This document shows, in pieces, positions 15,442 through 64,000 of a stretch of 64,000 bases of DNA. The stretch comes from Eledone cirrhosa (Eukaryota). A program made the translations under genes and the position numbers. Numbering within the stretch: position 1 is the stretch's first letter; every line of letters begins with the position of its first letter. The DNA lies in the NCBI GenBank assembly GCA_964016885.1, contig OZ024763.1, positions 19,902,001-19,966,000 of the forward strand. Reading direction: 5' to 3'. A model generated the notes under the pieces. That model saw only the letters and a list, made by a program, of their open reading frames with translations, did no database searches and had not been told where the DNA came from.

Positions 15442-15510
15442 ATTTTATTATGCGCATTTCAAAAACAAACATCATCAAGCAATAATATTTGTGTTTTCAT
15501 CAGATAAAAC
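15442..15510 (-). ncRNA. Type I hammerhead, family H6 (left arm of fold-back 15404-15683)
   Basis: GTTTTAT CTGATGA AAACACAAAT...GTTTGTTTTT GAAA TGCGCA TA / ATAAAAT. Confidence 0.75.
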
Positions 15511-15576
15511 AGGAAAACATGATATGAAGGCTAAAAAAACACAAGTGCTTTTTTAGCCTTCATATCATGTTCTCCT

Positions 15577-15645
15577 GTTTTATCTGATGAAAACACAAAT
15601 ATTATTGCTTGATGATGTTTGTTTTTGAAATGCGCATAATAAAAT
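15577..15645 (+). ncRNA. Type I hammerhead, family H6 (right arm)
   Basis: CTGATGA 15584-15590, GAAA 15627-15630, palindromic TGCGCA, then TA and stem I. Confidence 0.75.
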
Positions 15646-15681
15646 ATATGGAACTCCTTTAACCATCTTTTGATCTTATAT

Positions 15682-17915
<2,234 letters not shown>

Positions 17916-21835: not shown

Positions 21836-24064
21836 AGAGAGAGAAGCTAGGCGACAAGTATACTTACCTAGGAGGGAAGCAGAGGATAGAAAATTCAAGC
21901 ATGTTTTACAACGTGAGGACCAGAAACAGGAGGTGTTCAAGATTGCGAGGCAGTGTGTCAGAGATAGTTGTGATGTCGTTGGAGAGAAGTGTATCCGGAA
22001 TGATAAAGGTGAGCTTGCCCTCACAAGTGCTGAGAAGAAAGATGCATGGAAGAGTCATTATGATAGATTACTAAATGAGGAGAATGCATGGGAAGAAGAG
22101 ACCCTACCCCACGTAGACCCTATAGCGGGACCAGCAGTACAAGTCAGCAGCAGCGTAGTAAGTAAGGCAATCAAAGATATGAAGATGGGGAAGGCAACTG
22201 GTCCATCGGGTATAGCTGCCGAGATGCTGAAGGCATCTGTGTCTGTAGGTCACACTATAACCACACGTATTGTTAACCAGGTAATACTAGAAGGTGTCAT
22301 ACCAAAAGATTGGTGCAGTAGCATCATTGTCAACTGCTACAAAGGTAAAGGCGATGCACTAGATTGAGTAAACTATAGAGGTATAAAGTTGATGGACCAG
22401 GTCATGAAAGTAACAGAAAGAGTTATAGCACAGCTGATTAGGGACCGGGTGAAAATAGACGAGATGCAATTTGGGTTTGTACCAGGGAGAGGCACCACTG
22501 ATGCCCTCTTCCTTGTGAGGCAATTACAGGAAATGTACCTAGCTAAAAGTAAGCCACTCTACTTGGCATTTGTCGACCTTGAGAAAGCCTTTGACAGAGT
22601 TCCACGTGCTGTAATCTGGTGGGCTCTTAGAAAACTAGGAGTAGATGAATGGCTTGTGAAAGCGGTACAAGCCATGTATAGGGGAGCAGTCAGCAAAGTT
22701 AGGATTAGCAATGAGTATAGCGAGGAATTTAGCGTACAGGCTGGGGTCCACCAGGGCTCTGTTCTTAGCCCTCTCCTGTTCATCATAGTCCTGCAGACAA
22801 TAACGGAGGAGTTTAAGACCGGATGCCCATGGGAACTCCTGTATGCTGATGACCTCGCACTTATAGCTGAATCTATGGTAGAACTAGAGAAGAAATTCCA
22901 AACTTGGAAGCAGGGACTGGAAAGAAAAGGTCTCAAAGTCAACATGACAAAGACTAAGGTCCTTGTAAGTAGACGAGAAAACAGAACCCAGATCCCCTCA
23001 GGGAAATGGCCTTGCTCAGTATGTAGGAAAGGTGTAGGTAGCAACTCGATTCTCTGCCCCAAATGCAAACAATGGGTACACAAGAGATGTAGCGGGATCT
23101 CAGGAAGCTTAATTAAGAATGTAGGATTCACATGCAGCAAACAGCCACAGGAAACAAGTACCACCAATCTCTGGGAGGGCCCTGTAGAAACAGTAGACAG
23201 CTTCTTCTACCTAGGTGACCGAATTAGCAGCGGAGGTGGGTGTTCAGAAAGTACAATAACTAGGGTAAGAATGGGATGGAAGAAGTTTAGGGAACTACTA
23301 CCACTGCTAGCTGCAAAAGGCTTCTCCCTCAGAATGAAAGGCAGACTGTATGATGCGTGTATCCGAACAGCGATGTTGCATGGTAGTGAGACCTGGGCGC
23401 TGAAGGTGGAAGACTTATGTAGATTAGAGAGAAACAAAGCCTGTATGCTCCGATGGATGTGTAACAGTAATATACGTGAACGACAAAGAATAAATGAATT
23501 GAGAGAGAGACTGAGCATAAGAGGAATCAAGTGCTGTGTGCAGGAGAGGCGGTTGCACTGGTATGGACATGTGATGCGTATGAAGGATGACAGCTGCATA
23601 AAAAGGTGCAGAGCACTAGAAGTTGATGGAAACCGCGGAGTGGGGAGACCCAAGATGACCTGGGATGAGGTGATAAAAGCCGACCTTACCCAATTGCACC
23701 TCTCAAAGACAATGACTTCTGGCGTCACGCAGTAATACAGAGTACCCGACCTCCCATGGGTACAAGCTGAAACATATAGACAATATGCCCCCACACCCCC
23801 CACCGCAAGGTGGTCGTGGAGGTGCCACGGCAAAAAAGCACCCAGCCCACACTGTAAAGTGGACATGTAGGCGCCACGAAAAAGCACCCAGCACTCACTG
23901 TAAATGAGGTTGGTGTTAGGAAGGGCATCCAGCTGTAGAAATCAAGCCAAATCAGTTCCTGTATGAGCAAGGTATGGTCAGCCGACCAGACACTGCCCAC
24001 AACAGGACAACCCGTCTAACCCATGCTAGCGTGGAAGAACGGACGTAAAACGGTGATGATGATG

Positions 24065-24582: not shown

Positions 24583-25989
24583 ATCATCATCATCATCATC
24601 ATCATCACCGTTTTACGTCCGTTCTTCCACGCTAGCATGGGTTAGACGGGTTGTCCTGTTGTGGGCAGTGTCTGGTCGGCTGACCATGCCTTGCTCATAC
24701 AGGAACTGATCTGGCTTGATTTCTACAGCTGGATGCCCTTCCTAACACCAACCTCATTTACAGTGAGTGCTGGGTGCTTTTTCGTGGCGCCTACACGTCC
24801 ACTTTACAGTGTGGGCTGGGTGCTTTTTTGCCGTGGCACCTCCACGACCACCTTGCGGTGGGGGGGGGGGGGGGGCATATTGTTTATATGCTTCAGCATG
24901 TACCCATGGGAGGTCGGGTACCCTGTATTACTGCGTGACGCCAGAAGTCACGGTCGTGTGTCATTGACTTTGAGAGGTGTAGTTGGGTAAGGTCGGCTTT
25001 TATCACCTCATCCCAAGTCATCTTGGGTCTCCCCACTCCGCGGTTTCCATCAACTTCTAGTGCTCTGCACCTTTTTATGCAGCTGTCATCCTTCATACGC
25101 ATCACATGTCCATACCAGCGTAACCGCCTCTCCTGCACGCAGCATTTGATTCCTCTTATGCTCAGTCTCTCTCTCAATTCATTTATGCTTTGTCGTTCAC
25201 GTATATTACTGTTACACATCCATCGGAGCATGCAGGCTTCGTTTCTCTCTAATCTACGTAAGTCTTCCACCTTCAGCGCCCAGGTCTCACTACCATGCAA
25301 CATCGCTGTTCGGATACACGCATCATACAGTCTGCCTTTCATTCTGAGGGAGAAGCCTTTTGCAGCTAGCAGTGGTAGTAGTTCCCTAAACTTCTTCCAT
25401 CCCGTTCTTACCCTAGTTATTGTACTTTCTGAGCACCCACCTCCGTTGCTAATTCGGTCACCTAGGTAGCAGAAGCTGTCTACTGTTTCTACAGGGCCCT
25501 CCCAGAGATTGGTGGTACTTGTTTCCTGTGGCTGTTTGCTTGCTGTTTCAGCACAGCTGCTGCATGTGAATCCTACATTCTTAATTAAGCTTCCTGAGAT
25601 CCCGCTACATCTCTTGTGTACCCATTGTTTGCATTTGGGGCAAAGAATGGAGTTCCTACCTACACCTTTCCTACATACTGAGCAAGGCCATTTCCCTGAG
25701 GGGATCTGGGTTCTGTTTTCTCGTCTACTTATAAGGACCTTAGTCTTTGTCATGTTGACTTTGAGGCCCTTTCTCTCTAGTCCCTGCTTCCAGGTTTGGA
25801 ATTTATTCTCTAGTTCTACCATAGATTCAGCTATGAGTGCGAGGTCATCAGCATACAGGAGTTCCCATGGGCATCCGGTCTTAAACTCCTCCGTTATTGC
25901 CTGCAGGACTATGATGAACAGGAGAGGGCTAAGAACAGAGCCCTGGTGGACCCCAACCTGTACGCTAAATTCCTCGCTATACTCGCTAT
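24583..25989 (-). mobile_element. RTE LINE subfamily B, 5'-truncated
   Basis: ORF 24893-25822 with an intact C4HC3 finger; reverse complement of ~22712-24066. Confidence 0.95.
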
Positions 25990-26532: not shown

Positions 26533-26683
26533 TATATATTTATATATACATATATAAATGGAAAAAATGAAACGAAATTTCATTTCTCACTCTTAGTACG
26601 GCTGTTACTTAAATAGAAGTATACATACTTATATATACATACGTATACATACTTATATATACATATATATTTATATATAAATA

Positions 26684-28810
26684 TACGAAACGCTTCTAAA
26701 TGAGGAGAATAAATGGGAGAAAGACATTCTCCCCCACATCGACCCAATAGAGGGACCAGCAGTGTTAGTCGAAGGTAGTATAATAAGTAAGGCAATCAAA
26801 GATATGAAGACGGGTAAGGCGGCTGGGCCTTCGGAAATAGTTGCTGAGATGCTGAAAGCCTCTGGAACGGTGGGACACACCATGGTCACCCGGATAGTAA
26901 ACCAAGTCATACAGAATGGGGTTGTTCCGAAGGACTGGCGTAGCAGCATCATCATTAACTGTTACAAGGGTAAAGGAGATGCCCTAGATAGGAGTAACTA
27001 TAGAGGCATTAAATTAATCGACCAGGTCATGAAGGTCACGGAAAAAGTAATAGCGCAACTAATCAGAGAGAGAATTGATCTAGATGAAATGCAGTTCGGG
27101 TTTGTGTCAGGCAAAAGTACCACAGACGCTCTTTTCATTGTACGACAACTACAGGAGAAGTACCTAGCTAAAAGTAAACCACTATACTTAGCTTTTGTCG
27201 ACTTGGAGAAAGCCTTCGACAGAGTCCCCCATTCCATTATCTGGTGGGCTCTTAGAAAACTAGGTGTTGACGAATGGCTTGTGAGAGCTATACAAGCCAT
27301 GTATCAAGAAACAGTCAGCAAGGTTAGAATTAACAACGAATATAGTGAAGAGTTTAGTGTAAAAGTTGGTGTTCATCAGGGCTCTGTTCTTAGCCCCCTA
27401 CTATTTATTATTGCCCTTCAGGCTATAACAGGGGAGTTCAAGACCGGCTGCCCATGGGAACTCCTATACGCAGATGATCTAACGCTCATAGCTGAATCAA
27501 TGGCCGAGCTAGAGAAGAAATTCCAAACATGGAAGCACGGCCTAGAATCAAAAGGCCTTAAAATTAACCTGGCTAAGATTAAATTTCTAGTTTGTAGGAA
27601 AGAAAATAAGGTGCCGGTAGCTTCCGGGAAATGGCCATGCTCAGTGTGTAGGAAAGGCATAGGTAGAAACTCCATTTTATGTCCCAAATGCAAAGTATGG
27701 GTGCATAAAAGATGTAGTGGGATCACAGGTAAGCTAACTAAGAACATAGATTTTACATGTGGCCGGTGCTCTGGTGCAATAAGTAGCAGCAAGTGCCCAC
27801 AGAATACTAGCTCTTTCAATTGTGCAGAGGGTTCTATAGAAATAGTGGACACGTTCCGTTACCTGGGTGACAAAATCTGCAGTGGGGGAGGGTGCTCTGA
27901 AAGTACAGTAGCTAGAGTCAGAACTGAATGGAAAAAGTTCAGAGAGCTTATACCACTATTAGCTGCTAAAGGGTTCTCCCTAAAAATGAAAGGCAGGTTG
28001 TATGATGCCTGCATCCGAACAGCAATGATGCATGGTAGTGAGACCTGGGCATTGTGTGCAGAGGATATACGCAGACTAGAGAGCAACGAAGCTTGCATGC
28101 TCCGCTGGATGTGTAATAGTAATATACGTGAACGGCAAAGCATAAACAAACTAAGGGAAAAATTAGAAATAAGAGGGATCAGATGTTGTTTACTCGAGAG
28201 AAGGCTACGTTGGTATGGTCACGTGATGCGCATGAATGACGACAGCTGTATAAAAAAGTGCAGGGCAATAAAGATAGACTGTAGCCACGGAGTAGGCAGA
28301 CCCAGAAAAACCTGGGACGAGCTGATAAATTCCAACCACACACACTTACACCTCTCCAAGACAATGTCACTGGACCAAGATCTTTGGCGCTACTCAGTAA
28401 TAGAGAAGACCCGCCTTGCCTAAATACAAAGTAAACCTACTACAGTCAGTAGGCATCTCTAACAAAATACGCCCCCGTCACACCACCCCCAACTCATTCA
28501 CACCGCTCCTTTCAATGTAAAGTTATGTTGGTGCCACAACATCCAGGCCGAAACAAATGAGATCGTGTAGGTGTCACGACAAAAAAACACACAGTCCACG
28601 CTGTAATGTGGCCGTGTAGGTAACACGGTAAAAACCTCCCAGTCCCACACTGTAAATGTGGTTGGTGTTAGGAAGGGCATCCAGCCGTAGAAAACCCGTC
28701 AGATAGTCCTATGCGAGCAAGACAACCACTCTTGCCTCAAGTGGGAAAACTCCCGTCCAAACCCATGCAAGCGTGGAACATGGACGTTAAACGATGATGA
28801 TGATGATGAT
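26684..28810 (+). mobile_element. RTE LINE subfamily A, 5'-truncated, uninterrupted 553-aa RT/PHD/C-terminal ORF (26762-28423)
   Basis: All RT motifs present including LLYADD; no endonuclease domain; 3' UTR followed by (GAT)n. Confidence 0.95.
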
Positions 28811-52377: not shown

Positions 52378-52545
52378 ACTACTATGGTTGTTGTTGGTGT
52401 TGCTGTGTCTTGGACTGATGTCCTACCAAATCATAGACCGTATCATCTATTACTACAGCTGGCCAGTGACCGTCAATGTGGATGTCAACTACAACAAAAC
52501 CCTCATCTTCCCATCTGTAACAATTTGTAATCAAAATGCTTTCAG
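52378..52545 (+). CDS. DEG/ENaC sodium channel, next coding exon (TM1 and post-M1 FPxVTICN motif)
   Basis: Polypyrimidine tract then TAG|A; encodes (K)LLWLLLVLLCLGLMSYQIIDRIIYYYSWPVTVNVDVNYNKTLIFPSVTICNQNAF(R); donor AG|GTAAGT. Confidence 0.92.
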
Positions 52546-53290
52546 GTAAGTTTCGACATACACATACATACACACACATACATACACACATACACATACA
52601 TGCATATTTACACAAACACTTATACACACACACATACACATACATACACATACATACAAACACACACATTACATACACACACTCTTACACACACATACAT
52701 ACACACATACACATACATGCATATTTACACAAACACTTATACACACACACATACACATACATACACATACATACACATACATACAAACACACACATTACA
52801 TACACACACTCTTACACACAGATACACACACACACACACACATTGCATACACACACACACACACATTACATACATGAATGTACATATATATGATGATGAT
52901 GATGATGATGGTGATGATATGCACATACATACAAACACATCACATAAACACATAGACACTTACACACACACACACACATATATACAGAGTGCATATATGC
53001 AGATACATAGTAATTCATAGGCATTCACATACATGCATACACACACACACATATACATGTGTAAATACACTCTAACACATATGCACACACACATACATAC
53101 AAATACAGACACTCACATACAAACACATAGACACACACACACACATATATGTTTAGGCACTTACATAGACATGTACACATACAGAAATACAAATACATGC
53201 ACACACATATGATATATACTAATGTAAATATAGATATTAATGTAAACATATATATTAAGCTAAATATATATTTACATATATAATAATAGA

Positions 53291-57523: not shown

Positions 57524-58011
57524 ATACCTTCCTGCCAGATTGTTGAACGTATATACTTGTCCCTTATGCATATTAACGGCTGAGTAGCCCAATTTGCATA
57601 TCGAGTGGGTTAATCGGCCGGGTGCACCGAAAATGATAAACGGAAAAAATGAAACGAAATTTCATTTCCCACTCTTAGTATGGCTGTTAATATGCATAAG
57701 CCGTTAATATTCATAAGGTAAGTACACCGAAGTGTCACTGGGTACACTGTCATCATTGAAATATGTATCACAGCATTATCATTAAAGGACTTTAACATCT
57801 GAAACTACTTCGCATTTTCTTACTCTATATATAGGAAAATGTTCAAGACCCTGATGGCAGAGAAATAGCTGTCGAAACGGCTTGAACATTTTCGGGGTCT
57901 TGAACATTTTCCTATTACCCACTCTACTACCCTAAGTATTGAGTACTCTGGTGCGTTATGGTCCATCTGGTTCCTTACCACACTTCCTTTGTTATATACA
58001 CACACACATAT

Positions 58012-59074: not shown

Positions 59075-61034
59075 ATCATCATCATCATCATCATCAACGT
59101 TTAACGTCCGTGTTCCACGCTTGCATGGGTTTGGACGGGGGTAGTCCCACTTGAGGCAAGAGTGATTGTCTTGCTCGCATAGGACTGTCTGGCAGGTTTT
59201 CTACAGTTGGATGCCCTTCCTAACACCAACCACATTTACAGTGTGGGTCTGGGAGGTTTTTACCGTGTTGCCTACACGGCCACATTACAGCGTGGACTGT
59301 GTGTTTTTTTGTCGTGACACCTACACGATCTCATTTGTTTCGGCCTCGATGGCGCGGCACCAACATAACTTTACATAGAACGGGGTGGTGTGGATCGGGT
59401 GGGGGTGGTGGGACGGGGTGTATTTTGTTAGAGATGCCTACTGGCTGGAGTAGGTTTTACTATATATTTAGGTAAGGCGGGTCTTCTCTGTTACTGAGTA
59501 CCGCCAAAGGTCTCGGTCCAGTGACATTGTCTTGGAGAGGTGTAAGTGTGTGATGTCGGAGTTTATCAGCTCGTCCCAGGTTTTTCTAGGTCTGCCTATT
59601 CCGTGACTACCGTCTATCTTTATTGCCCTGCACTTTGTTATACAGCTATCGACTTTCATGCGCATCACGTGTCCATACCAACGTAGCCTTCTCTCGAGTA
59701 AACAACATCTGATCCCTCTTATCTCTAATTTATTCCTTAGTTCGTTTATGCTTTGCCGTTCACGTATATTACTGTTACACATCCAGCGGAGCATGCAAGC
59801 TTCGTTCCTCTCTAGTCTGCGTATATCCTCTGCACACAATGCCCAGGTCTCACTGCCATGCAGCATTGCTGTTCGTATGCAGGCATCGTACAACCTGCCT
59901 TTCATTTTTAGTGAGAACCCTTTAGCAGCTAATAGTGGTATAAGCTCTCTGAACTTTTTCCAACCAGTTCTGACTCTAGCTACAGTACTTTCAGAGCACC
60001 CTCCCCCACTGCTGATTTTATCGCCCAGGTAACGGAAGCTGTCCACTATTTCTATAGAACCCTCTGCGCAATTGAAAGAGCTAGTAGTTTGTGGGCACTT
60101 GCTGCTACTTATTGCACCAGAGCACCGGCCACATGTAAAATCTATGTTCTTAGTTAGCCTACCTGTGATCCCACTACATCTTTTATGCACCCATACTTTG
60201 CATTTAGGACATAAAATGGAGTTTCTACCTACGCCTTTCCTACACACCGAGCACGACCATTTCCCAGAAGGGACCGCCGCCTTGTTTTCTTTCCTACAAA
60301 CTAGTACTTTGGTCTTAGCCAGGTTAATTTTAAGTCCTTTTGACTCTAGGCCGTGCTTCCATGTTTGGAATTTCTTCTCTAGCTCGGCCATTGATTCCGC
60401 TATGAGTGTCAGGTCGTCTGCGTATAGGAGTTCCCATGGGCAGCCTGTCTTGAACTCCTCTGTTATGGCCTGAAGGGCAATAATAAATAGTAGTGGACTG
60501 AGAACAGAGCCCTGATGGACGCCGACTTTTACGCTAAACTCTTCACTATATTCGTTGTTAATTCTAACCTTGCTGACTGTTTCTTTATACATGGCTTGTA
60601 TAGCCCTCACAAGCCATTCGTCAACGCCTAGTTTTCTAAGAGCCCACCAGATAATGGAGCGGGGGACTCTGTCGAAGGCTTTCTCCAAGTCGACAAAAGC
60701 TAAGTAGAGGGGTTTACCTTTAGCTAGGTACTTCTCTTGTAGTTGTCGTACTATGAAAAGAGCGTCTGTGGTACTTTTGCCTGACACAAACCCGAACTGC
60801 ATTTCATCTAGGTCAATTCTCTCTCTGATTAGTTGCGCTATTACTCTTTCCGTGACCTTCATGACCTGGTCGATTAATTTAATGCCTCTATAGTTACTCC
60901 TATCTAGGGCGTCTCCTTTACCCTTATAACAGTTAACGATGATGCTGCTATGCCAGTCCTTCGGAACAACCCCGTTCTGTACGACTTGGTTAACTATGCG
61001 GGTGACCATGGTGTGTCCCACCGTGCCAGATGCC

Positions 61035-61037
<3 letters not shown>
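59075..61037 (-). mobile_element. RTE LINE subfamily A, 5'-truncated, uninterrupted RT/PHD ORF (stop at 59468)
   Basis: Full RT motif set; the ORF N-terminus in the track is microsatellite read-through. Confidence 0.95.
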
Positions 61038-61082
<45 letters not shown>

Positions 61083-62015: not shown

Positions 62016-62377
62016 ATATATGTGTTTGTGTCTATATTGTATCTGTATTATTTTTGACCGTTGGTCAGTCAATGACAACATTGAGGACCGAATAAATTAG
62101 ATTACCGATATAAAAGATACAGAAGCGAAAAGCGAAAACCAACCAAACAGTGAGTGTGTTCTGTTATAAATTCTGGCAATATTACACAAATATGACCCTC
62201 CCCAAGTATAACAATATATATACACACACACACATATATATATATATATATTAGGGTAAACATTGATGCAATTCAATTCAAGCACTCAACGTACTTTTTC
62301 CACATAGGAGTGACGGAGTAAATATCGAATAAGTAAAAGCGAAGTAGTTTCAGATGTTCAAGTCCTGTAATAATAAT

Positions 62378-62451
62378 GCTGTGATATATATTTCAATGAC
62401 GACACTGGTCACACTGTTCTGTGTGCGAGTGTCGTGACATCATCAGACAGC
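62378..62451 (-). ncRNA. Type I hammerhead, family H12
   Basis: GCTGT CTGATGA tGTcACGACAC...GTGTCGTcATt GAAA TATATA TC / ACAGC. Confidence 0.8.
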
Positions 62452-63652
62452 TTGTTACATAATAAGGTGGTTTCCGAGGCAATCCAAATTGAATCGACAT
62501 GGGAACGGATGAAGTTCGTGCTTTTGGGTTTTTCATCCGTTCCCTTGTGAGTACCAATTCACCCCCACCGGTCTGCGCAAGCGCATGTCCGAAGGAAGTT
62601 GACCATTAGCACCGCAGATTTCAATGAAATTCGCTGTCAGTGGCCCACCTATGCCTTGCTAAAGTTTACTGCTACCCATCGCTACTGTGGCAGTCAGCCG
62701 AAAGCCAGAGGGGATGGGAGGGTGTTAGTTTTTATAGGTCATAATACTACCTTTCACTAGGCGTTGACAGTAAGACTGACCATCAACTCATAAGGGAAAA
62801 TAAACTTAATTCTAGGTACTATGGTTTTACATAGTAAGTTAAGAGTGAGAGGTGGGAATAAAAATTAAAATTAAAAGTTAAAATCCTAAATCAAATATCA
62901 GAGATTATAAATTAAACAATAAAGAATTCAAAAATTCTAAATTTTAAAATTTTTTTCAAGTGATAATTCGGATTAAGTAAAGATATAGATTGAAGTGAGT
63001 AAATAATATGGAGAGAGATGTTTAAGTAATATGTTCTGGGAGGGATTCTAGTGTTACAGATATTGAACGGCAGTGTCGTACATTATAACGTAGGGCAAAC
63101 CACATGGTTCAAGGCATTAGTCAATCCGTTACACGGTCATACTTTCCATCACATGGAACAGAGTCAAAGAAAAACAGATATACAGTACACAAAAGAAAAG
63201 AAAAGGACAGAGACGATAGTGAATAAATGCAAAAACTCAGAGTACATATATGTAAAATGATCCATATGATTGTCCCTCTGTCCGTGTATAGATTGAATTG
63301 AGGGGGCCTCTGTTCAAAAGCGATTTGGTGCAGGAAAATAGGGGTTTATCTTATTTTTTGTTTCCGCGTATTTATCCTGCCGAAAGATACTATTACGCCC
63401 GTCCAGTGTCAGGGGTTTTTCATCCCCATGGTAGAGGGGATTTCCGGGGTAGCTCTTGGTTGGTTCCTCTCTTCTCCACCATATCGGTTACATCATAGAG
63501 CGCTCAACTAATCGGAGCTTAATTATTAGGGTAAACATTGATGCAATTCAATTCAAGCACTCAACGTACTTTTTCCACATAGGAGTGACGGAGTAAATAT
63601 CAAATAAGTAAAAGCGAAGTAGTTTCAGATGTTCAAGTCCTTTAATAATAAT

Positions 63653-63726
63653 GCTGTGATATATATTTCAATGACGACACTGGCCACACTGTTCTGTGTG
63701 CGAGTGTCGTGACATCATCAGACAGC
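63653..63726 (-). ncRNA. Type I hammerhead, family H12 copy 2
   Basis: Same motif, 1275 bp from copy 1. Confidence 0.8.
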
Positions 63727-63910
63727 TTGTTACATAATAAGGTTGTTTCCGAGGCAATCCAAATTGAATCGACACGGGAACGGATGAAGTTCGTGCTTTT
63801 GGGTTTTTCATCCGTTCTCTTGTGAGTACCAATTCACCCCCACCGGTCTTCATCCGTTCCCATGTCGATTCAATTTGGATTGCCTCGGAAACAACCTTAT
63901 TATGTAACAA

Positions 63911-63984
63911 GCTGTCTGATGATGTCACGACACTCGCACACAGAACAGTGTGGCCACTGTCGTCATTGAAATATATATCACAGC
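63911..63984 (+). ncRNA. Type I hammerhead, family H12 inverted copy
   Basis: CTGATGA 63916-63922, GAAA 63968-63971, ATC ending at 63979. Confidence 0.8.
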
Positions 63985-64000
63985 ATTATTATTAAAGGAC

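Follow-up and report, generated by a model that had tools for sequence, protein, structure and literature searches.

Penelope-like elements (PLEs) that carry an endonuclease insert according to a scheme in which a partial tandem with pseudo-LTRs is joined to an inverted copy (PMC8557442). Such a partial tandem with an inverted pseudo-LTR is shown by Pen2a_Av in PMC3846280, which also describes non-coding DNA between pseudo-LTRs; the captured spacers of the rotifer element Pen1_Av are 0.9–1.5 kb long and unique (PMC3846280). Putatively non-autonomous PLEs with pseudo-LTRs (MRC1) are known as well (PMC8557442). The published minimal hammerhead ribozymes (HHRs) of PLEs cleave poorly or depend on protein (PMC4209133, PMC11167929). 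For the anole Poseidon PLE, PMC11167929 reports an internal start of reverse transcription, HHR cleavage that is dispensable and protein-assisted, and unprocessed RNA as the main template. Animal retrozymes, with lengths of 51–972 bp and with minimal HHRs also admitted, have been argued to be non-autonomous derivatives of PLEs (bioRxiv 10.64898/2026.07.22.740005).

The locus described here occupies positions 62249–64000 of the window, a stretch of 64,000 nucleotides from Eledone cirrhosa. It probably represents a non-autonomous PLE, a multi-copy 1275-nt repeat that is copied in trans by a PLE reverse transcriptase/endonuclease from an uncut template. With the endonuclease-positive PLEs (Pen2a_Av, PMC3846280; PMC8557442) it shares two direct pseudo-LTRs, a shorter head-to-head inverted copy, 5′ truncation, an HHR in the pseudo-LTR and a microsatellite target. 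Unlike those elements it has no ORF that could be found between the repeats, and its unit measures 1275 nt instead of 2–4 kb. The Chlamys MRC1-type PLEs are likewise ORF-less, with pseudo-LTRs, head-to-tail insertions and the need for a PLE in trans, but they belong to a green alga, mostly lack canonical HHRs as described in PMC8557442, and commonly have (C)n or (CA)n targets. The animal non-LTR retrozymes (PMC7229834; bioRxiv 10.64898/2026.07.22.740005) resemble the locus in being non-coding and PLE-derived, with a GC content below 45%, one type I HHR per unit and two HHRs exactly one unit apart. They are typically about 300 nt long (51–972 bp reported, in a search confined to periods of up to 1000 bp), comprise two or more full units instead of 1.26, and carry canonical rather than minimal HHRs; the present element is known from DNA alone. 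The locus borders on the animal retrozymes. It is a new family but not a new kind of system, since its layout, its ribozyme and non-autonomous PLEs have all been described. In the open papers searched, no description of the 1275-nt family was found; it may already be catalogued elsewhere.

Architecture and surroundings of the locus

The features of the locus and of its older relative in the window are as follows.

57745..57833, plus strand: older 89-nt stump of the 1275-nt family, 87.6% identity, in which the 3′ half is all that is left of the HHR
62234..62248, no strand: (TA)n microsatellite, 3′ junction and target site, seen in the sequence; the 3′ ends of other copies enter TA at the equivalent position 63526 (3 contigs, run X4)
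62249..62574, minus strand: last 326 nt, at the 3′ end, of the complete 1275-nt unit (downstream pseudo-LTR), where the depth of the family in reads is greatest; the element terminates 134 nt beyond the HHR cut
62378..62451, minus strand: minimal type I hammerhead motif 1, predicted cut 62383/62382
62501..62544, no strand: 13-bp perfect hairpin (62501–62513 with 62532–62544); the inversion folds back at its copy, 63776–63819
62575..63523, minus strand: 949-nt non-coding body (the spacer), multi-copy, with a U-rich block at 62850–63249 (44% U in the RNA sense)
63524..63849, minus strand: 5′-truncated second unit (upstream pseudo-LTR), which makes the partial tandem
63653..63726, minus strand: hammerhead motif 2, predicted cut 63658/63657; in read-through RNA the inverted arm is expected to pair with all of it
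63848..64000, plus strand: inverted, further 5′-truncated copy, joined head-to-head via a 2-nt microhomology, crossing the window end
63911..63984, plus strand: hammerhead motif 3, in the inverted copy, predicted cut 63979/63980, with one additional stem II mismatch

The direct repeats R1 (62249–62574) and R2 (63524–63849) are 326 nt long each, have a spacing of 1275 nt and differ at 6 positions (98.2% identity). The inverted copy, which begins at 63848 and continues beyond the window end, corresponds to positions 62514 down to 62362 read in reverse, with 149 matches in 153 positions. An earlier reading of the DNA, made from its letters and termed here the sequence-only reading, had recognised both the near-identical repeats and the abutting inverted third copy, and the measurements agree with it. 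R2 and the inverted copy meet head-to-head at a 2-nt CT microhomology, and the inversion point is located at the inner edge of one arm of the 13-bp hairpin. The insertion comprises 1.26 head-to-tail units (1601 nt) of the 1275-nt element, which has a GC content of 39%, together with the inverted arm. The locus thus consists of one full unit, preceded by a 5′-truncated unit, which in turn is preceded by an inverted truncated copy. Measured from the predicted cut site of one HHR, the insertion ends 134 nt downstream, and at its other side it extends 192 nt upstream beyond the next HHR site. Within the 153 nt that all three copies have in common, each has differences of its own (3, 1 and 1). A decayed relative that had been placed at about 57745–57825 is indeed present, but its span, on the plus strand, reaches 57833, and over its 89 nt it lacks the CUGAUGA half of the core.

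The 326-nt repeat is a 5′-truncated second unit, i.e., a pseudo-LTR, and not an LTR of the kind found in plant retrozymes. Plant LTR retrozymes show a superficial likeness, with a repeat-spacer-repeat order and one HHR per repeat, and they are characterised by type III HHRs, a PBS, a PPT, 4-bp TSDs and Gypsy helpers (bioRxiv 10.64898/2026.07.22.740005). The testable ones of these characters are absent from the locus: its HHRs are of type I, no TGG-type PBS follows 63524, no purine run precedes 62574 and no TG..CA ends are present. The sequence-only reading had likened the locus to the plant forms with long repeats and a spacer; the contrast with plants does not apply, the layout being the partial tandem plus inverted copy that is usual for animal PLEs. 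The length of 326 nt appears to be specific to this copy.

The window is rich in microsatellites and contains LINEs with RT and PHD domains, which we take to be RTE-type elements. Among the repeats of octopuses, RTE-BovB is prominent (PMC8967140), which would fit an octopod host. On the plus strand, an exon of the DEG/ENaC type (Pfam ASC, profile positions 23–79 of 455) is located at 52379–52546, and none of the 73 plus-strand frames between this exon and position 62250 matches any Pfam family. It is therefore probable that the element sits in an intron and that R1 and R2 run antisense to the DEG/ENaC gene.

The hammerhead motifs

The HHR motif, composed of a 5-bp stem I, CUGAUGA, a long stem II, GAAA, the palindromic AUAUAUAU and a UC cut site, is present on the minus strand in R1 and R2 and on the plus strand in the inverted copy; the third motif had gone unmentioned in the sequence-only reading. 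The HHR pattern occurs 8 times in the 64-kb window, against 0.19 expected occurrences, and this number was reached in 0 of 100 shuffles. Two further families of the motif are found in the window, one at 13625–13841 and 46240–46289 and the other at 15449–15638. All three families have a U before GAAA and a C·pyrimidine mismatch at the fourth position of stem II. Stem III with its loop is self-complementary in all 8 motifs, while its sequence varies by family (AUAUAUAU, AUAUGUAU and AUGCGCAU). The palindromic stem III noted earlier is thus borne out across the three families, and the retention of self-complementarity despite different sequences argues for a real dimer-type ribozyme fold; the covariation points to a probable selection for dimeric folding.

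Stem I is an open helix, which makes the motif a type I HHR. From its base, stem II consists of a U·U, a G·U and a U-A pair, followed by a C·C mismatch and 8 pairs, and in the HHR of the 1275-nt unit the two core halves are separated by 45 nt. In agreement with the description of PLE-type HHRs in PMC4209133, helix I has a length within the 4–5 bp range, helix II is long, helix III is palindromic and the motif is located inside the pseudo-LTR. The motif departs from a canonical type I HHR (6-bp helix I, 4-bp helix II, loop-loop contacts) by its 5-bp helix I and its long, interrupted helix II. The hallmark of minimal HHRs, an extra nucleotide after A9 together with a G10.1-C11.1 pair, is missing; a U·U takes the place of the pair and no nucleotide is added. 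As judged from these sequence features, the motif fits the minimal type of PLE pseudo-LTRs, albeit without the usual G10.1-C11.1 pair. The U·U in that place is not a private defect, because the same mismatch, in a CUGAUGAU..UGAA core, occurs in 14 of the 26 Hydra-clade rows of the HHR table in PMC8557442 (File S2). The ribozymes had been described as intact, which holds for the core nucleotides, all of which are present, but not for the base of stem II (U·U instead of G-C) nor for the monomer, whose active fold is predicted in all three copies to lie 6 kcal/mol above the minimum-energy fold.

A search of Rfam gave no match at the gathering threshold and no hammerhead family at E-values up to 10; the matches in the E-value scan were exclusively hairpin-driven and of miRNA type, all below threshold. 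In a pattern scan of metagenomes the motif was found at 0 loci. The presence within 64 kb of three HHR families, all with a long stem II and none reported by Rfam, suggests that the genome carries a large unannotated ribozyme load.

The Hydra-clade PLEs (PMC8557442, Files S1 and S2) resemble the locus in several respects, including a sense HHR near the 3′ end, the CUGANGAU..UGAA core with U·U in those 14 of 26 rows, and a (TA)n target, which is listed for 20 of 21 Repbase families and for 6 of 6 new Hydra families. In contrast, stem II of the present motif, with its 45 nt, is much longer. One Hydra-clade family is listed from Octopus bimaculoides; no match to this element, Hydra-1_Obim, was seen, and the HHR of this sole octopus Hydra element in the table is different and has no U·U. 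A placement near the Hydra clade, made by HHR style and TA target and not by reverse transcriptase or endonuclease, would be a lead only. With regard to an autonomous partner with a matching pseudo-LTR, two 11-nt HHR motifs gave 0 matches in the consensus sequences of the PMC8557442 supplement. A comparison by eye, not by alignment, showed no likeness to Naiad_Obim, Naiad_Ovul, Naiad_Omin or the initial 2.2 kb of Hydra-1_Obim.

The spacer and its family in public reads

The longest stop-to-stop frames of the spacer are 76 and 74 amino acids long, both shorter when counted from ATG, and the number of stops as well as the longest frame match those of 1000 block shuffles. The sequence-only reading, which reported a spacer of about 950 bp with no ORF above 70 amino acids, was correct as to the non-coding nature and the size (949 nt), but not as to the limit on stop-to-stop frames. 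Read-through frames searched against Pfam and PHROGs gave nothing credible in any of the six frames. No match was obtained for one sense frame in a full HMMER search, nor, in word-seeded searches, for the two remaining sense frames and an antisense frame; two of the three large sense-frame searches covered targets of 257–821 amino acids. These protein negatives stand without a PLE positive control and are compatible with a very decayed remnant. Within these searches the 1275-nt unit appears to have no coding capacity for a reverse transcriptase or a GIY-YIG endonuclease. A GIY-YIG look-alike in the 76-aa plus-strand frame 63030–63260 was dismissed: it had no credible match in PDB, PHROGs or Atlas, and the positions of 4 of 15 listed variants at third codon positions (hand count) were counted against it.

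To place the spacer within its family, reads from 4 of 12 listed runs (three from organism A, one from organism B; X6–X9, with small shares, were not among them) were aligned to one repeat-free unit, 62350–63624. The spacer is covered and variable in 30/30, 27/30, 24/30 and 28/30 bins of the four runs, and among the pieces listed those of organism B show 84–97% identity. As it is covered with many variant letters in all four runs, the spacer is not single-copy flank. Neither of the origins that the sequence-only reading had set against its own proposal was thus found, the spacer being multi-copy in two organisms and containing no detectable decayed PLE ORF. The label 'young' given to the element holds in a relative sense: divergence is about 1% per copy, but the family is common to a second organism.

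Summed contig depth, which does not give a copy number, is 20-fold (X1) and 38-fold (X4) higher at the 3′ end than in the middle of the spacer, a shape expected from 5′ truncation. Single contigs have depths of 6–12 and the sums run into the thousands, from which hundreds of copies with a spacer, and a far larger number of 3′ stumps, may be very roughly estimated. Besides the 3′ ends at 63526, other copies show a truncation near 63428 into TA (111 reads), strand switches (inversions) at 62407/62460 and 62468/62551, and frameshifting indels. Among the loose ends listed, which are a small part of the total, no pile occurs at 62574, the boundary equivalent to the end of the upstream pseudo-LTR, and depth continues past this position. 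No contig among those listed spans the whole 1275-nt unit. Among the 40 of 268 variant rows listed, some are found as far as 63513 and 63520, which is within 4–11 nt of the junction; their depth, 29 and 14 contigs in X1, is like that of the spacer. These two rows, rather than an alignment, suggest that the junction 63524/63523 between pseudo-LTR and spacer is common to most copies.

Several apparent signals in the reads were discarded. In the RAD run X10, read ends or loose ends at 62490, 62556, 62631, 62811, 63296, 63545 and 63550, which could be taken for boundaries or for a 20-nt tail, all coincide with AATT sites and are library artefacts; the apparent second 3′ end at 63545 is one such restriction artefact. 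Read joints that go back by 1275 nt were not accepted as evidence of circles, as they are expected from any pseudo-LTR on a one-unit reference. An excess of T>C is present among the family variants; it is unpolarised, and a reading in terms of RNA editing or deaminase action is left as a note.

The multi-copy nature of the spacer bears on two other explanations of the locus. In size and layout it resembles the captured spacers of Pen1_Av (PMC3846280) and, superficially, LTR-spacer-LTR retrozymes, so that the locus could be a one-off capture of host DNA between two pseudo-LTRs, or an LTR-type retrozyme in the manner of plants. Both origins are highly improbable and largely refuted by the read data: Pen1_Av spacers are unique, whereas the present spacer exists in many variants and recurs in the second organism, and the LTR-type origin is further contradicted by the type I HHR, the absence of PBS, PPT and TG..CA ends, and the lack of a listed boundary pile at 62574. 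Improbable, but less so, is an origin from an autonomous PLE whose non-coding 3′ region is unusually long or whose ORF is badly decayed. The locus would then hold two or three 5′-truncated pieces of this PLE, and the 1275-nt unit would be no family of its own. The U-rich block, compared by eye, resembles the 3′ UTRs of PLE consensus sequences (PMC8557442 supplement), and in run X4 the depth drops sharply beyond about 62866, and a dominant variant differs between 62607 and 62665, so that related families with other upstream parts exist. However, the depth and the variant rows near the junction suggest a boundary shared by many copies, and none of the sense frames gave a protein similarity.

Copying of the element and nature of its template

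A non-autonomous PLE would account for the combination of 1.26 units with an inverted copy joined head-to-head, for the 3′ junction in (TA)n, for the 3′-biased depth and for the varied truncation and inversion points. Several characters of PLE insertions are present, namely pseudo-LTRs in partial tandem, an inverted 5′-truncated copy at the 5′ end, dispersed 5′-truncated copies and AT-rich or microsatellite targets. The sequence-only reading had proposed a non-autonomous, PLE-related element, a proposal strengthened by the multi-copy non-coding spacer and the minimal HHR.

Insertion would begin with a nick in the (TA)n target by a borrowed PLE endonuclease, followed by target-primed reverse transcription in trans. 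Reverse transcription would start internally, 134 nt downstream of the HHR site, copy one whole unit, pass through the next HHR site and stall 192 nt beyond it. The end of the new cDNA would then fold back at the 13-bp hairpin via the 2-nt match and copy itself, giving rise to the inverted arm. Because the inversion point lies at the inner edge of a hairpin arm, such fold-back and self-copying is suggested, in line with the self-priming idea put forward in PMC3846280.

The positions of the insertion ends constrain the template. Since they lie 134 nt past and 192 nt beyond the HHR cuts, a linear 1275-nt RNA running from cut to cut cannot have templated the insertion. Reverse transcription ran through an HHR site, and the template was therefore either an uncut transcript of more than one unit or a ligated circle that was read past its junction. 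Since no difference is shared by two of the three copies, the differences do not discriminate between a linear and a circular template.

A circular template would belong to the same non-autonomous PLE family, acting as a long retrozyme. Two HHRs would pair via their palindromic stem III and excise the 1275-nt monomer, whose possible circularisation the sequence-only reading had also put forward. Closure would be the work of a host ligase, and by travelling round the circle more than once the PLE reverse transcriptase would yield 1.26 units. This course of events is in keeping with HHR sites placed exactly one unit apart and with the loop III that stays self-complementary in 8 of 8 motifs despite its changing sequence, and it offers a simple explanation for cDNA of more than unit length, as proposed in PMC4209133. 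Short animal retrozymes do form circles (PMC7229834), and retrozyme consensus lengths extend up to 972 bp in a search that ended at a 1000-bp period (bioRxiv 10.64898/2026.07.22.740005). It is nevertheless judged unlikely. Minimal PLE HHRs cleave poorly even as dimers (PMC4209133), only 1 of 9 Xenopus retrozyme dimers was cleaved in vitro (bioRxiv 10.64898/2026.07.22.740005), and at the HHR site of the anole PLE no ending RNA-seq reads are reported in PMC11167929. The proven animal circles arise from canonical HHRs, with units of about 220–400 nt (PMC7229834), and little structure is predicted for the 1275-nt circle (z = −1.5 against 30 shuffles).

The inverted arm would present an additional obstacle to circle formation from this copy. 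For minus-strand RNA that includes the arm, the predicted fold is a hairpin of about 150 bp in which the whole upstream HHR is paired (−305 kcal/mol), and in plus-strand RNA the third HHR is predicted to be paired in the same hairpin (−291.5). According to these folds, the upstream HHR of this copy is predicted to be silenced in any RNA with the inverted arm, and the cut at 63658/63657 would need a transcription start within 63849–63727.

An uncut transcript of more than one unit, derived from a partial-tandem master, would thus be the most likely template of the non-autonomous PLE. It is favoured because in the anole element HHR cleavage is dispensable and protein-assisted and no RNA reads end at the cut, and because of the weak cleavage by minimal HHRs, the single active dimer among nine from Xenopus and the weak structure of the predicted circle. 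The HHR would then likely be a weak processing signal, dependent on dimers or on protein, that was inherited from a PLE pseudo-LTR.

Should the circular template apply after all, which we doubt, the locus would belong to a successful octopod family of ribozyme-cut circular RNAs of 1275 nt. It would be the longest retrozyme of an animal to date and a parasite of a TA-targeting PLE, with reverse transcription running round the circle. Such an element would have been overlooked because screens stop at 1 kb. With no protein in the unit and with ribozyme sites spaced by one unit length, the family would in that case allow the rolling-circle account of Penelope pseudo-LTRs to be tested cleanly in a natural setting. 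As a kilobase-sized, ORF-less and HHR-bearing unit that has continued to amplify and is common to at least two organisms, the element bridges the short animal retrozymes and the full PLEs. It bears on the regeneration of the PLE partial tandem and on the purpose of the HHR.

Variation among copies in the sequencing runs

When the four public sequencing runs were aligned to one unit of the element (62350-63624), T>C was more frequent than A>G among the plus-strand variant places in all four runs (p 0.002-0.006, for runs that are not independent and changes that are unpolarised), while G>A and C>T were balanced. The T>C excess could stem from RNA editing, cDNA deamination or reverse transcriptase bias. 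For runs X4 and X5, the segment 62607-62665 is occupied by other sequence in a dominant variant of run X4, and depth falls past 62866. Together, the variant segment and the fall in depth possibly reflect a sister subfamily or the 3′ region of the helper, the putative Penelope-like (PLE) partner that supplies proteins.

Other hammerhead families and LINE copies

The window contains two further families with hammerhead ribozyme (HHR) motifs, as well as LINE copies:

13635-13830: second family, fold-back pair; head-to-head arms with one HHR each (13674, minus; 13792, plus)
46251-46361: second family, lone stump; HHR at 46289, minus; (TA)n at its end
15427-15684: third family, fold-back pair; arms 97.7% identical; long (TA)n run at its end
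22071-23714, 24594-25984, 26681-28792 and 59099-61038: LINE copies with RT plus PHD

The second-family copies are likely truncated PLE ends. In the third family the stem III palindrome contains GC and is stronger, with a predicted duplex of -10.5 kcal/mol; as modelled, this family is the best candidate in the window for efficient dimeric cleavage. The RT frames of the LINE copies are open over 455-580 aa, and one pair of copies is 93% identical.

A short inverted repeat (57831-57915) adjoins the decayed relative of the element. It includes a CTGATGG...GAAA string that, judged by sequence, resembles a damaged HHR core.

The 3′ end and stem III of the element

The motif TTAGGGT occurs on the plus strand within the element's 3′ end (62251-62257 and 63526-63532), equivalent to a single telomere-repeat-like unit. 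Because the insertion target is (TA)n, this likeness is probably due to chance.

The stem III palindrome (63658-63666 and 62383-62391, minus strand) is by sequence a TATA-like box. If it serves as promoter, transcript starts would fall downstream of the upstream HHR cut site. For a rotifer pseudo-LTR, PMC3846280 notes a TATATATA element.

The probable host gene

Two exons of a DEG/ENaC channel gene, ∼42 kb apart, are considered here:

10321-10554, plus: candidate first exon, HG motif only
52379-52546, plus: second exon, Pfam ASC match

The former we take to be DEG/ENaC solely by its HG motif; Pfam gave no match on 10321-10554. The element probably sits in the intron following exon 52379-52546. 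If it is indeed intronic, the DEG/ENaC pre-mRNA would contain a 150-bp hairpin.
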